Positions 37,137 through 42,281 of a stretch of DNA of 64,000 nt are shown one piece after another. A program made the translations under genes and the position numbers. This DNA comes from Candidatus Latescibacterota bacterium. GTDB taxonomy: Bacteria > Latescibacterota > UBA2968 > UBA8231. The stretch covers positions 4,448,001 to 4,512,000 of the forward strand of contig CBDETK010000013.1 of assembly GCA_965242865.1 (NCBI GenBank). Reading direction: 5' to 3'. A model generated the notes under the pieces. That model did not search any database. It saw only the letters and a list, made by a program, of their open reading frames with translations, and was not told where the DNA came from. The stretch's first letter is position 1. Each line of letters begins with the position of its first letter.

Positions 37137-37144
37137 GAAAAGCT

Positions 37145-38128
37145 GTGCGCGAAAAGCCGCCCTATACCATCTCATCCGATATTCTCTTTCGCATTGAACA
37201 AATCGGCGAAGCGATTGGCCGGGCCGAGGCCGCGGGCCTTGCGCAGGATTTGCGCTTGCGACGCATCAATCGCATCCGCACGATTTGTGGCTCGCTCGCC
37301 ATTGAAGGCAACATCCTCAGCGAGGAGCAAATCTCCACGATTCTCGACGGCAAGCCCGTCGTCGCCCCCCCGAGAGACATTCGGGAAGTCCGCAACGCCA
37401 TTGCGGCCTACGATCAATACCAGCAATGCAGCCCCGCCAGCGAGGCCGACCTGTTGCGCCTGCACGAAATTTTGCTGACCGGCCTATTGGACGCGCCCGG
37501 CCCATATCGCCGCACTGGCGTAGGCGTTATGGGCGGCGGCGAAATCCATCACGTCGGCCCGCCCGCCCAGCGCGTACCGCAACTCATGGCGAATTTGTTG
37601 GCGTGGCTGGGCAGCACCGATGAGCATCCGCTCATTGCCAGTTCGGTCTTCCATTACGAGCTCGAGTTCATTCACCCCTTTGAGGACGGCAACGGTCGGA
37701 TGGGGCGGCTCTGGCAGACTCTGATTCTGACCCGCTGGAAACCCCTGTTTGCCCACATCCCGGTGGAGAGTATGGTTCACATTCGCCAAGGCGACTACTA
37801 CGAAGCGATCAGGCAGAGTTCGACCGCCGGCGAGAGTACGCCGTTTATTGGGTTCATGCAGGACATTATTCTGGAGGCCCTCCAGTCTTCCGCAATAAGC
37901 GACCAAGTAAGCGACCAAGTAGCGCGGCTACTCAGGGCCCTGCGGACCGGCCCGAAAACCGCCGCCGAACTCATGGCGGCTCTGGGGCTGTCGCATCGTC
38001 CTACATTCCGCAAAAACTACATTCGCCCGGCCCTAGCCGCCGGGCTGGTGGAAATGACCCGCCCGGGATCGCCCACCGCGAAAAACCAAAAGTATCGGCT
38101 CACTACACGCGGACGGGAGCTGCGCTGA
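37145..38128 (+). CDS. Fic family protein with C-terminal DNA-binding HTH
   Basis: Canonical HPFEDGNGRMGR; SLAIEGN inhibitory motif; tail LSHRPTFRKNYIRPAL...PTAKNQKYRLT; GTG start at 37145. Confidence 0.92.
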   Translation: MREKPPYTISSDILFRIEQIGEAIGRAEAAGLAQDLRLRRINRIRTICGSLAIEGNILSEEQISTILDGKPVVAPPRDIREVRNAIAAYDQYQQCSPASEADLLRLHEILLTGLLDAPGPYRRTGVGVMGGGEIHHVGPPAQRVPQLMANLLAWLGSTDEHPLIASSVFHYELEFIHPFEDGNGRMGRLWQTLILTRWKPLFAHIPVESMVHIRQGDYYEAIRQSSTAGESTPFIGFMQDIILEALQSSAISDQVSDQVARLLRALRTGPKTAAELMAALGLSHRPTFRKNYIRPALAAGLVEMTRPGSPTAKNQKYRLTTRGRELR

Positions 38129-38202
38129 GATCTGTCTGCGCCCTTGACAAAGCCCCGCCACCAAAATAGGCTTAACTTAACTTAGCTATCGGAGAGTTCG
38201 CC

Positions 38203-38283
38203 ATGGTGAACATGCCCGAGGTCAAATCGCAGCTTTCGCGCCAAGGGAAGCTACTCGCCATAATTGCCGCCATCTCTCGTTAA
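38203..38283 (+). pseudogene. 5' remnant of a Phd/YefM-family antitoxin
   Basis: GGAGAG RBS then MVNMPEVKSQLSRQGKL, which resembles the VNMHEAKSQLSRL Phd consensus; early stop. Confidence 0.65.
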
Positions 38284-38358
38284 CGGAGCATCTCCGATTG
38301 ACCTGCCAAAGTGCCAATGGCATTTTAGGCTACAAATCCCTCACTCAATAGCGAAAGG

Positions 38359-39123
38359 ATGCTACTCATGCCAGCCACAGCACGTCAAATGGTTCAACCT
38401 ATCTCAGCCACAATGGACACCGTAACAGCAACAGTGTTTAGTGATCGTCGTACTATTCAAGCTCCCGACATCGCTTTGCCCAAAGCTCTAAAGCCCAACA
38501 CTCGTGTGAAGATGGACGGATTAAAGTTTCTCGGTTTACTACCCTTAGAAAGCATCCCAGTGGCTTTTTTCGATCCACAATATCGAGGAGTGCTTGATAA
38601 GCTGTCCTATGGAAATGAAGGCCAGCAACGTGGAAAACGGCGGTACGCGCTCATGCAAATGAGCGAGGCGGATATTACCAAATTCATACAGGGGATTGAC
38701 CGTGCGCTTATCCCATCCGGCCACTTGTTTTTGTGGATGGATAAATTTCACCTCTGTCAGGGTTTCAAGAATTGGATTGACTCGACGGACTTAGATGTTG
38801 TGGATCTAATCTCTTGGGACAAGGGCAAGCTCGGTATGGGCTACCGCTCGCGCCGAATTACGGAATACTGCGTCGTTCTGCAAAAGCAACCCCGTAAGGC
38901 AAAAGGGGTTTGGAAAGTTCACAACATTCCCGATACATGGCGCGAAAAAGTGGTTAAGACAGTGCATCCACACACAAAGCCCATAGACCTACAAGGCGAA
39001 TTAATTTGTGCGGTATCTAATGAGGGGGATTATGTGATTGACCCTGCGGCTGGTTCCTTCTCAGTAATGGAGGCAGCCCAGTTACGCGGCCGCAACTTCT
39101 TAGGGTGTGATTTGGAGGGATAA
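38359..39123 (+). CDS. Beta-class N6/N4 DNA methyltransferase (type II RM)
   Basis: FFDPQY (DPPY variant) precedes HPHTKP and VIDPAAGS; low GC. Confidence 0.88.
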   Translation: MLLMPATARQMVQPISATMDTVTATVFSDRRTIQAPDIALPKALKPNTRVKMDGLKFLGLLPLESIPVAFFDPQYRGVLDKLSYGNEGQQRGKRRYALMQMSEADITKFIQGIDRALIPSGHLFLWMDKFHLCQGFKNWIDSTDLDVVDLISWDKGKLGMGYRSRRITEYCVVLQKQPRKAKGVWKVHNIPDTWREKVVKTVHPHTKPIDLQGELICAVSNEGDYVIDPAAGSFSVMEAAQLRGRNFLGCDLEG

Positions 39124-39124
39124 T

Positions 39125-39910
39125 ATGGCACTTATCCGTAACGCCGCGCCCAAGAACGTCTCGGGGGCTTATGTGCGGCTGTTTGATAACCACGAACTAG
39201 GAACATTAGTCAGTAAGTTGCAGTCCACCGTCATCTCTTCAGGCAGCGAACTAGAAAAAATTATCACGAAGCAGGTGGAGAACATCCCCGATCTGGATGC
39301 GTTCCTAGAGCAAGAAATTATGCCTGAAGGAGTCTATATGGCCTGCAAGCAACAGATGAAGCAATCGAAGACCTTGGATTTCTCAGAGGCCGAGCCAGAC
39401 TTTATGATTTTCAAGCGGCGCGAAAATCGACAACGCTGCCATATCGTAGAGTTAAAGGATGGCCATGTCTTTGATACTAAAAAAGCCAGCGCGGAACGAC
39501 AAGCCATGCACGGCTTTACTGAGCGAAATGCTCTACATCTACCGTACGTGGTATCATGCCATTTCTGTGCATTCAATCAGGAAGACAAAGAGGCAATCCT
39601 AACAGGTTTCAAGAACAAGATAACCCGAGACGAAGTCATGACAGGCCGCGAGTTTTGTGAGTTGCTGGAAATTGACTACCACCAGATTGTCTCCAGCCGA
39701 TTAAGCGAGGGAGCAGCCAATCTTGACTATTTTTGCCGTGAGTTAGTCAAAATACCAGCCGTCCGAGAACGCTTGGGGCGGCTGATTAAAGAGGAACGTC
39801 AGCCTGGTGGGCTAGAGGGAAAAATTTGGCTGTCTCCAGACTTCGATGAGCCCGATGAAGAACTCATAGAACTGATTGAGAACTCGAAAATTTTCCCAGA
39901 TGAGGATTAG
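39125..39910 (+). CDS. Putative type II restriction endonuclease, C-terminally fused to an antitoxin tail
   Basis: EPDF...IVELKDG PD-(D/E)xK motif; adjacent to the MTase; ends RQPGGLEGKIWLSPDFDEPDEELIE. Confidence 0.75.
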   Translation: MALIRNAAPKNVSGAYVRLFDNHELGTLVSKLQSTVISSGSELEKIITKQVENIPDLDAFLEQEIMPEGVYMACKQQMKQSKTLDFSEAEPDFMIFKRRENRQRCHIVELKDGHVFDTKKASAERQAMHGFTERNALHLPYVVSCHFCAFNQEDKEAILTGFKNKITRDEVMTGREFCELLEIDYHQIVSSRLSEGAANLDYFCRELVKIPAVRERLGRLIKEERQPGGLEGKIWLSPDFDEPDEELIELIENSKIFPDED

Positions 39911-39912
39911 CC

Positions 39913-40293
39913 ATGTCGCGGCTACTGTTGGATACCCACCCCCTTTTATGGTGGCTATCCGATGTGGAGCAACTGGCCGAAGATGCCCGGGCCGCAATTG
40001 CCGACCCGCACAATGACGTTTTCGTCAGTGCCATCACCGGGTGGGAAATCGCGGTCAAGCAAGCCAAGGGTCGCTTGGTCGCTCCAGACAATCTGTCGAT
40101 GTTGATTGAGCAAAAGGGCTTTACCCACCTTCCGCTGACGTTCCAGCACGCCGAGCAGGCCGGCCGCCTCCCGTTGCACCACCGGGATCCATTCGATCGG
40201 TTCCTGATTGCCCAAGCTCAGGCCGAAGGGCTGATCCTCGTGACTCGGGATGGCCTCATTCGGCGATACGACGTGGCCATCATGAAGGTTTGA
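39913..40293 (+). CDS. vapC: VapC family PIN-domain toxin
   Basis: LLLDTH, VSAITGWEI and HHRDPFDRFLIAQA...LVTRD. Confidence 0.93.
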   Translation: MSRLLLDTHPLLWWLSDVEQLAEDARAAIADPHNDVFVSAITGWEIAVKQAKGRLVAPDNLSMLIEQKGFTHLPLTFQHAEQAGRLPLHHRDPFDRFLIAQAQAEGLILVTRDGLIRRYDVAIMKV

Positions 40294-40370
40294 GCCCGTG
40301 AAGCGTCGCCAGCAGATCGAGGAGGCATGAGGCCAATCCTCAACGCGCTTCGCGCCAGCGCACCGCTAGC

Positions 40371-42281
40371 ATGACCGCACGCGCCTTCCTCATCGGCTTG
40401 GGCCTCGTGGTCCTGATCAACATTGGGGCCCCGTATAGCATGTTCATCCTCAAGTCCTCGCAATGGGCGATCAGCTACCTGCCCCTGAGCGTAGTCTTTC
40501 TCTTTACCGCCTTAGTCTTTCTCAACGCCACGGCCAAGTCGCTGCTCAAGGTGCGCGGCCTGAACACCAGCGAGCTCGGCCTCGTCTTTACCATGTCCTT
40601 GGTCGGGGCCTCGATTCCCACTTGGGGCACCTCCACGTACATGATCGCGGTCATCGCCGCCCCCCAGTACTTTGCCTCGCCCGAAAACCAGTGGCAGAGC
40701 AAGGTCGTGCAGTACATCGAGGAATGGCTCGTGCCCAACGACGCGATTGCCCTCAAGTGGTTTTACAACGGCCTGCCCGCCGGCGAATCCATCCCTTGGG
40801 GCGCGTGGATCGGGCCGCTTTTTTGGTGGACCAGCTTGGTCATGGCCATCTTCTTTTTGTGTCAGTGCATGGTCGCCGCCCTGCGCAAGCAGTGGGTCGA
40901 ATACGAGCGCCTGCCCTTCGCCCTGATGGCATTGCCCCAACAACTCATCGCCCCACCGCGCGGCTCCAACTGGCCCGGTTTTGTGCGCCAAAAGGCGTTC
41001 TGGTTCGGCTTTGCCCTGCCCTTCTGCATGGTTATGTGGAACGTGGTCACGTACTTTACCCCGGCCTTTCCGCCCATCCCCCGCGACCTGTCCGACCCCA
41101 TCCGCATTGGCCGCGAATTTCCCGCTATTCACACCAACGTCAACTGGGCCATCGTCGGCTTTGCGTACTTCGTCAACCTTGACGTGTCGTTCAGCTTGTG
41201 GTTCTTCACCGCGCTCACCATGCTGCAACAGGGCCTGTTCAATCGCTTCGGCTACACCTTGGCTGGCCGCGATGTGTACACCCTCGGGCATCCTGGGATC
41301 GGCTGGCAGTCTTTCGGTGCTCTAATCGCCCTCGTCGGCGGCATGCTGTGGATGGCGCGCGGGCACCTCGGCGCGATCTGGCGCAAAGCGGTGCATAACG
41401 ATGCGGCCATCGACGACGCCGACGAGCTGATGTCCTACCGGATGATCGTCTTTGGCGGCGGGCTGGCCCTGCTCTACATCGCCTTTTGGCTGTGGCGGGC
41501 CGGCATGAACCCGCCCACGGTCGCGCTCTTCATCTTAGCGACCTTGGTTCTCTACGTCGGCATTACGCGCATCATCATGGAGGGCGGCTTGCTCTTTAGC
41601 CGCGCCCCGCTCGTCGGCCAGACCTTTGTCGGCTACGCGCTCGGGCCGCACGCCACCGCGCAGAGCAACATCGCCCTGGGGCTGTCCTACGGCTGGCACC
41701 ACGAGCTCAAGGGCTTTTTCATGGTCGCCGCGGCCAACAGCGCCAAAGTGGCCGGCTCCATCCGCGGCAACCGCCGCTATCTGAGCTTCTACCTCCTCCT
41801 CTCGGCGCTGGTAGCCCTGGTCGTCTCCATGGCCTTCGCGCTCTACATGGGCTACTCCTTTGGCGCGTACAACTACGGGGGGTGGATCTTCGGCACCGGC
41901 TCGCAAGTGCCCTACGTGGAAAGCCTGCGGAAAATCGATCTCAAGGCCCCGGATTGGACGCGGTTGGGCCACCTCGTCAGCGGCGCGGGCGCGATGGGGT
42001 TGTTGACCTTTATGCGCTACCGCTTCTCGTGGTGGCCCCTGCACCCGATTGGCATGCCGGTCGGCATCTGCTCCTACCCCATGACCATTATCGTCTTTTC
42101 GATCTTCGTCTCTTGGCTGGCCAAATGGGCCATTATGCGGTCGGGCGGCATCGGCCTCTACCACCGCGCCCAACCCTTCTTCATCGGCCTCATCCTCGGG
42201 TACTTCACCGCGATTGGCCTGTCCTTTTGCATCGACATGATTTGGTTCCCCGGGCAAGGGCACCCCCTGTACGGAAACTAG
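40371..42281 (+). CDS. Polytopic membrane protein (DUF6785/DUF6784-like)
   Basis: LRKQWVEYERLPF; RYRFSWWPLHPIG; GGIGLYHRAQPFFIGLILG. Confidence 0.75.
   Translation: MTARAFLIGLGLVVLINIGAPYSMFILKSSQWAISYLPLSVVFLFTALVFLNATAKSLLKVRGLNTSELGLVFTMSLVGASIPTWGTSTYMIAVIAAPQYFASPENQWQSKVVQYIEEWLVPNDAIALKWFYNGLPAGESIPWGAWIGPLFWWTSLVMAIFFLCQCMVAALRKQWVEYERLPFALMALPQQLIAPPRGSNWPGFVRQKAFWFGFALPFCMVMWNVVTYFTPAFPPIPRDLSDPIRIGREFPAIHTNVNWAIVGFAYFVNLDVSFSLWFFTALTMLQQGLFNRFGYTLAGRDVYTLGHPGIGWQSFGALIALVGGMLWMARGHLGAIWRKAVHNDAAIDDADELMSYRMIVFGGGLALLYIAFWLWRAGMNPPTVALFILATLVLYVGITRIIMEGGLLFSRAPLVGQTFVGYALGPHATAQSNIALGLSYGWHHELKGFFMVAAANSAKVAGSIRGNRRYLSFYLLLSALVALVVSMAFALYMGYSFGAYNYGGWIFGTGSQVPYVESLRKIDLKAPDWTRLGHLVSGAGAMGLLTFMRYRFSWWPLHPIGMPVGICSYPMTIIVFSIFVSWLAKWAIMRSGGIGLYHRAQPFFIGLILGYFTAIGLSFCIDMIWFPGQGHPLYGN

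Follow-up and report, generated by a model that had tools for sequence, protein, structure and literature searches.

A restriction endonuclease that continues in frame into an antitoxin tail: a likely antitoxin for the adjoining vapC in a Latescibacterota genome

What silences a toxin when its antitoxin gene has been interrupted by other genes? This question is raised by a toxin-antitoxin (TA) operon of Candidatus Latescibacterota bacterium (GenBank assembly GCA_965242865.1), located in a 64,000-nucleotide stretch of contig CBDETK010000013.1 (positions 4,448,001 to 4,512,000, forward strand). This whole stretch is called the window, and coordinates are counted from its first nucleotide. The order of the elements is predicted promoter, 5' stub of an antitoxin gene, DNA methyltransferase (MTase) gene, restriction endonuclease (REase) gene continuing into an antitoxin tail, and vapC. 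A preliminary description had placed a restriction-modification (RM) system inside a Phd-type vapBC operon, and had claimed that the REase has no stop codon of its own, runs in frame into the antitoxin tail and is followed 2 nt later by vapC. All these parts were found where they had been placed, and the in-frame run into the tail was confirmed. Comparison with related loci suggests that insertion of the RM genes into the antitoxin gene probably made the REase::tail protein the acting antitoxin of vapC. The elements of the locus are the following.

38144..38196, + strand: predicted promoter/operator region of the resident TA operon, in a stretch conserved in the related loci L004 and L005
38144-38149, + strand: -35-like TTGACA, read from the sequence
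38172-38187, + strand: operator-like direct repeat TTAACTTAACTTAGCT, read from the sequence
38191-38196, + strand: ribosome binding site GGAGAG, read from the sequence
38203..38283, + strand: antitoxin 5' stub, a 26-codon open reading frame (ORF), with DNA homology to intact orthologs limited to 38203-38250
38251..39789, + strand: RM cassette insert of 1,539 bp, replacing 80 bp of the antitoxin gene (L005:1298-1377)
38359..39123, + strand: Type II DNA MTase (Pfam PF01555, 8.2e-14; PADLOC MTase_II, 1.9e-79)
39125..39789, + strand: REase-derived part of the fusion ORF, residues 1-222 (PADLOC REase_II, 1e-46)
39790..39910, + strand: antitoxin C-terminal tail, residues 223-261 (EERQPGG...FPDED) and stop, in frame with the REase
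39125-39910, + strand: whole fusion ORF REase::tail, 261 aa
39913..40293, + strand: vapC, PIN-domain toxin (PF01850, 5.1e-19), with its ATG 2 nt past the REase stop
39900..40281, + strand: stretch deleted in a natural derivative that lost vapC and kept REase::tail (contig of run X4)
37142..38128, + strand: SoFic-like Fic-domain gene (Pfam Fic, 5.5e-21; Fic-like_C, 1.3e-27; PADLOC SoFic, 8.2e-41)

The original state of the operon could be recognized in related genomes. When 60 relatives were searched with VapC, a full-length vapC ortholog (81-90% identical) was found in 16 genomes of the same genus, and in 16 of these 16 orthologous loci an intact antitoxin gene of 84-87 codons ends 2 nt before vapC. 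In DNA alignments with L004 and L005, homology ends at position 38250 of the window and restarts at 39790, thus 80 bp from the middle of the antitoxin gene were exchanged for the 1,539 bp insert. The stub corresponds to the first 16 codons of the antitoxin gene, and beyond 38250 it is insert sequence that is read to a stop after the frame break. On the other side, the tail consists of the last 39 codons of the antitoxin gene and shares 93-94% nucleotide identity with the 3' ends in L004 and L005. The N-terminal DNA-binding/dimerization domain of the antitoxin, of which these 16 homologous codons are left, was not retained. Relative to the intact antitoxins, the stub itself has lost 6 nt and shows two replacements at conserved positions; in a variant from sequencing run X6 the ancestral residues are still present at the altered positions, and the stub has a 3-nt deletion at 38266.

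The family assignment of the antitoxin comes from profile matches below the cut-offs. The N-terminus of the intact ortholog in L005 matched PF02604 (Phd/YefM) with an E value of 7.2e-4 and 19.7 bits, below the 29.8-bit cut-off, and its C-terminus matched DUF2281 (5.8e-4) and NCBIfam TA_VapB (1.1e-5), both under cut-off. The tail in the window gave the same two matches, also under cut-off (TA_VapB 1.4e-4, DUF2281 6.7e-3).

The insert differs from its surroundings in composition, the GC fraction stepping from about 0.60-0.65 in the flanks to about 0.47-0.51 between roughly 38300 and 39900. Among 101 genomes (100 relatives and the window's own genome, G000), the REase part of the fusion protein (approximately residues 1-211) found a match in G000 alone; the other 22 matches to the fusion protein span approximately residues 212-261 and represent resident antitoxin genes. 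In the cassette flanks no target duplication or long inverted repeat was found above short matches at chance level, and by eye the breakpoints share 1-2 bases. A similarity around GARCGCTTRG was considered as junction homology and dropped: it lies 15 bp from the right junction, off the breakpoint. As judged from these alignments, the RM cassette is most likely a recent, horizontally acquired insertion into the antitoxin gene.

Both genes of the cassette appear from their sequences to be intact. The PADLOC REase_II profile aligned with its positions 5-223 (of 227) to residues 5-217 of the REase, the PD-(D/E)XK core is present as the invariant P91-D92...E109-L-K111, and the consensus residue is found at every one of the 81 columns with at least 90% conservation across 60 other homologs. 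The MTase has the consensus residue at all 103 of the columns conserved to at least 90% among 43 other distinct homologs. Its start codon is tentative; homology to relatives begins near 38401. The usual catalytic motif of N6/N4 methyltransferases is DPPY/F. The family motif at 38572-38583 reads DPQY, as does that of a copy in Ruegeria. The M and R genes are adjoining and co-oriented, and the M-R pair was found in 62 of 64 genome loci.

Alignment of REase homologs, proposed in the preliminary description as a way of finding the normal C-terminus, showed that the tail is foreign to the enzyme family. Lengths of 219-240 aa, covering 82-88% of the query, were found for 116 of the best 120 of 690 matches. 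At the 64 species-representative genome loci 51 of the REase ORFs have 220-238 codons and 13 are truncated, and none carries the tail. A scan of JGI metagenomes with the six closest REases yielded 15 loci, all with at most 67% identity and none with the tail. P0002, which at 83% identity is the nearest relative without a fusion, extends four residues past the fusion point, so the fusion costs the REase only about four native codons and the stop. In the AlphaFold2 model, residues 1-225 mostly have predicted local distance difference test (pLDDT) values above 90 and close in a helix (211-225), and residues 226-261 are at pLDDT 33-53, which suggests that the antitoxin tail is disordered on the fusion protein. 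The best Foldseek match of the REase model was EcoO109I (E 3.7e-3), followed by type II REases and the Can2/Card1 PD-(D/E)XK nucleases; nothing was found at E of 1e-3 or below, and a sequence search of the PDB with the REase gave no match at E up to 1.

The tail was surveyed in 80 loci (L099-L178) obtained with P0175. Its motif was found in 46 of them: on a Phd-like antitoxin in 43, at a contig end in one and on other carriers in two. In 43 of the 46 loci the tail is followed by a VapC frame that stays open for 110 codons or more, and no tail was left untranslated. The two other carriers are a Fic protein (L099), whose last codon leads directly into the tail, with an intact vapC behind, and whose unfused state is seen in L101, and a PF09957 VapB-type domain (L100), which has no vapC behind. 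A search among tail-bearing proteins of 143-457 aa found the protein cluster of the window and the L099-type Fic fusion and no others. In G000, which is 93.6% complete, the tail matched only once, at the fusion itself. Taken together, the sequence comparisons give good support to the tail being a conserved module that precedes this class of VapC and is portable across carriers.

A different C-terminal addition was observed on Fic proteins of three metagenome-assembled genomes (MAGs) of Binatia or Thermodesulfobacteriota (L102:3001-4098, L103:3001-4083 and L116:3001-4098). It resembles the end of the PF09957 VapB antitoxin (compare L100), and the Fic gene of L102 and L116 is directly followed by an intact Phd-type antitoxin gene and vapC.

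By the same kind of comparison, vapC in the window is intact. It encodes a PIN protein of 126 aa in which all columns invariant in a 20-sequence alignment, including D7, E45, D92/D95 and D113, are kept. The ratio of nonsynonymous to synonymous substitution rates (dN/dS), calculated from few sites, is 0.25 in the window and 0.19 among orthologs. G000 contains no close second vapC, the next best match being 35% identical, and a PDB search with the VapC profile found no solved relative at E up to 1e-3. Both dN/dS and the comparison of stub with tail were considered as arbiters between the readings and set aside, the sites being too few to decide anything.

In solved VapBC complexes, the C-terminal extension of the antitoxin occupies the active-site groove of the toxin (PMC5389673). 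In the window, binding of the tail to VapC was examined by complex folding with alignments of 20 rows for VapC and 21 rows for the tail, in three runs and with three controls. The median ipSAE interface score of the three runs was 0.53, as opposed to 0.00 for the best control; the runs share at least 94% of contacts and the pLDDT of the partner is at least 66. Of the solved complexes, 116 of the 157 passed the mark of this test, as did 2 of the 215 mismatched pairs; these counts are rough here since we used our own alignments. With scores of 0.60 or less, 18 of the 157 solved complexes reached the mark, as did both passing mismatches. The structural check foreseen in the preliminary description thus lends weak support to binding of the tail to VapC.

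Fusion of a related REase to another antitoxin tail was also observed. The sister REases P0003-5 and P0185-6, known as protein sequences alone and 82% identical to the REase of the window, end in a different tail, which is nearly identical to the C-terminus of FitA-like ribbon-helix-helix antitoxins of 83-95 aa. Such antitoxins precede a PIN toxin in genomes of Latescibacterota, Spirochaetia, Planctomycetota and others; in G000 no FitA-like antitoxin was matched. P0185 presents the full junction: the REase is cut at about residue 222 and is followed by the last approximately 70 residues of a PaREP1::FitA-tail protein. P0004 on the one hand and P0003, P0005 and P0186 on the other have two different in-frame deletions in the linker, both with the FitA-like tail in frame. 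We had considered three independent REase fusions and rejected this count, as P0185 shows that P0003-5 go back to one event followed by linker deletions. With this intermediate, the number of REase-into-TA events is two. The search for other fusions, which the preliminary description had called for, was thus fruitful, yielding the Fic::tail protein of L099 and the sister REase with the FitA-like tail.

Within the gene of a FitA-like antitoxin of Latescibacterota lies a PaREP1-family (HEPN-like) gene that continues in frame into the tail (L208:2114-2608, L211:2501-2800). L208 encodes the PaREP1::FitA-tail protein and the PIN toxin gene is gone; in L211 an N-terminal stub of the antitoxin remains and the PaREP1 gene is degenerate.

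Could the joined reading frame be a product of the assembly? An assembler might have joined an RM cassette to a TA operon, and the sharp GC step taken alone would fit such a chimera. This can practically be dismissed. Nine sequencing runs from three studies contain the stretch, no RNA run being listed among them, and examination of their Logan contigs, which settled the question of assembly support raised in the preliminary description, showed that the left junction is bridged in X3, X4, X5 and X6 (three studies) and the right junction in X3, X4 and X6; contigs of runs from three studies span both. The X6 contig differs at 18 of 1,067 positions (1.7%), and contains the fusion and vapC to its end at 40178. 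Furthermore, the fusion protein cluster has ten members from separate assemblies, six distinct 261-aa alleles (on contigs up to 5.6 Mb), three 264-aa alleles and one fragment. All six alleles of the 261-aa, vapC-length form keep the invariant residues of the tail.

The 264-aa alleles are explained by run X4. In a 3,646-bp contig of this run (depth 343) position 39899 is joined to 40282, one side of the joint being just 26 nt long, and the depth is approximately 5 over vapC as opposed to 268-343 in the flanks. The joined frame ends in ...FPDEGLSP and the three 264-aa alleles end in ...FPDEGLNP; these ends identify the 264-aa alleles as the vapC-deleted form. In P0001, which is among them, the otherwise invariant glycine of the tail is replaced by serine. 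P0001 was at one point taken as independent support for the fusion with vapC; this was rejected when it proved to be the vapC-deleted form.

How the fusion may have come to serve as antitoxin can be envisaged as follows. A horizontally acquired cassette of a Type II M gene and a PD-(D/E)XK R gene would have been inserted by recombination into the central part of the resident antitoxin gene, removing the N-terminal DNA-binding domain. The REase, minus its last few codons and stop, would be translated into the last 39 residues of the antitoxin, a family-conserved and presumably disordered module that normally would bind and silence VapC. REase::tail would thus most likely act as the antitoxin, and probably as the only protection of the cell against VapC. 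Survival gives the simplest account: a cell with such an insertion would live on only while the tail is translated, or if the toxin is lost. Both outcomes, the tail kept in frame and the toxin lost, were seen at the locus of the window. Joining of the REase and of the Fic protein at the extreme C-terminus fits a need to keep both carrier and tail. As the DNA-binding half is reduced to a 16-codon stub, autoregulation by the antitoxin should be gone. In the region 37900-40500 no terminator was found and two promoter-like matches were at chance level; the consensus promoter scan did not call the TTGACA of the TA region, so we infer the promoter and operator function. The sequence GAGGA is located 6 nt 5' of the vapC ATG, within the last codons of the tail. 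Any nonsense mutation, frameshift or deletion that disrupts the REase gene would take the antidote with it, and VapC would thereby police the reading frame of the REase. Binding, neutralization, expression and this lock are steps that we infer. The preliminary description had proposed that the REase now serves as the antitoxin: this finds good support in the comparisons (the module in 46 loci, the other carriers, the sole copy in G000, the intact vapC), whereas the complex prediction supports it weakly.

Several observations weigh against this conclusion. In run X4 the derivative without vapC is the dominant form, and it exists in three alleles; the existence of such a population means that the REase/VapC pair is dispensable, and incomplete neutralization may favor loss of the toxin. 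The complex test of tail and VapC is weak by the tool's own wording. The fusion is without the upstream segment ...EPYLRLEPYR, which is partly kept in L099 and could contribute to VapC binding. The dN/dS of the tail core, derived from very few sites, is 0.26 in the window and 0.11 among orthologs. Finally, fused relatives were sought with protein searches, by which only in-frame fusions are detected, so their number cannot be read as a frequency.

Some of the same observations would be expected if the fusion were a neutral scar in a decaying module, in frame by chance (one in three), next to a VapC that is inactive, barely expressed or otherwise neutralized and a vapC gene that is being lost. 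That the vapC-deleted form is the major one in X4 and the complex prediction came out weak would agree with this, as would the locus in G007, where the match to vapC comprises only residues 1-67 beside an open antitoxin frame and thus points to toxin loss within the genus. We consider a neutral scar unlikely, for every invariant residue of VapC is kept and its dN/dS is similar to that of orthologs, six distinct alleles of vapC length preserve the invariant residues of the tail, and no second cognate tail was found in G000. Moreover, independent carriers (the Fic protein of L099 and the sister REase) were also fused in frame at their extreme C-termini, and the two later linker deletions in the sister REases stayed in frame.

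If REase::tail is the acting antitoxin, the arrangement might, by analogy, also work as a guard, a role that the preliminary description had proposed: a phage factor that inhibits or destabilizes the REase would free VapC, which would shut down the cell in an abortive infection. The likeness to EcoprrI-PrrC and the defense-rich neighborhood, where PADLOC recognized SoFic-like Fic, RM and VapBC together, would fit such a role. Nevertheless, we regard it as quite improbable, since a disordered C-terminal tail could stay bound to VapC even when DNA cleavage is inhibited, survival of the insertion fully accounts for the arrangement, and vapC is readily lost, as the X4 derivative shows.

The locus resembles several known systems in part. 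As in VapBC modules, a PIN toxin with its acidic residues is preceded directly by an antidote segment with a 2-nt gap, and a C-terminal extension would be the toxin-facing part (PMC5389673); in contrast to them, the antidote segment is on a 222-residue restriction enzyme instead of a DNA-binding domain and the operator-binding half is cut to a 16-codon stub. The anticodon nuclease PrrC is held latent through the type Ic enzyme EcoprrI and is activated by a T4 inhibitor of EcoprrI (PMC1484252 and PMC2610378). There, too, a restriction enzyme silences a toxic RNase, as REase::tail would, and DNA restriction is tied to an RNA-level back-up. PrrC, an ABC-ATPase/anticodon nuclease, associates non-covalently with its type I enzyme and responds to a known phage trigger. 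The operon of the window differs in having a type II enzyme with a covalent antitoxin peptide and a PIN protein of 126 aa as the toxin, in place of an ABC-ATPase plus anticodon-nuclease toxin and a type I RM locus.

Type II RM systems are themselves addiction modules causing post-segregational killing (PMC3874152). The selfish M and R pair, whose loss is penalized, is common to both, and in the window a second, independent penalty would be added: loss of the R frame would remove the VapC antidote, a route outside classical RM addiction. A further parallel is offered by modular antitoxins. Mix-and-match of antitoxin domains is established, and the occurrence of the same tail on Phd-like, PF09957 VapB-type and Fic carriers is in line with it. 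What differs is that the carriers described here are enzymes of other defense systems with recent insertion or deletion joints at their C-termini, and not long-standing DNA-binding partners.

The M-R pair is mobile cargo in other bacteria. In a Ruegeria MAG (L028:2227-4974) it is carried by an element of 2,748 bp that encodes an IS1595-family transposase (PF12762, 5e-42) and has perfect terminal inverted repeats of 26 bp. This element is present at 13 loci of one genome (L028, L030-L037, L061, L063, L068 and L080) with 99.5-100% identity, and at five of these loci it is interrupted or truncated. In 10 further genomes a related transposase gene is located directly 5' of the M gene, with four copies in one Longimicrobiales MAG, and in all an IS1595-type transposase accompanies the M-R pair at 26 of the 64 loci. 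The cassette in the window is like these passengers in carrying the same M-R pair, and unlike them in having no transposase match and in ending inside the REase gene: the Ruegeria transposase was absent from the 64-kb window by tblastn at an E cut-off of 1e-5, a search that did not extend to the inverted repeats. As the cassette ends inside the REase gene, it did not arrive as an intact element of the IS1595 kind. Full-text literature searches revealed no report of an IS1595 element with RM passengers, and none of a REase-antitoxin fusion.

The surroundings of the TA operon vary among relatives. The SoFic-like Fic gene directly 5' of the operon belongs to its context and is outside the fusion; its flank DNA is 82% identical to a Latescibacterota MAG. 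A Fic gene of this type is present upstream of the TA genes in L004 and L005 and absent in L008 and L019, where the end of a large permease gene lies directly 5' of the antitoxin gene. In run X6, 38 other letters stand in place of the 5 bases that separate the Fic stop from the TA promoter (38130-38136). At G007:C2:305512-305846, where the vapC match is limited as noted above, the adjoining antitoxin frame is open over 93 codons, and judged from its sequence the locus may represent a truncated toxin beside a kept antitoxin.

A broader interpretation is that tail capture is a recurrent, selected route by which defense genes (RM, SoFic-like Fic, PaREP1) become addictive as the sole antidote to a PIN toxin, with the toxin policing the reading frame and perhaps firing when a phage destabilizes the carrier. 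We offer this as a possibility only, and a somewhat doubtful one. If the tail still silences VapC, the fusion protein would be a natural restriction enzyme doubling as an antitoxin, created by one recombination event. In that case the toxin-binding end of an antitoxin would be a portable peptide that functions on unrelated carriers, and TA operons would filter surviving insertions, admitting in-frame tail captures alone. In sponge-symbiont genomes, two unrelated TA loci and three kinds of carriers show the same outcome. A search rule for hidden couplings of this sort would be to look for long proteins with an antitoxin tail at their end, encoded just 5' of a toxin gene, by which a TA pair could lock a neighboring defense gene in place.

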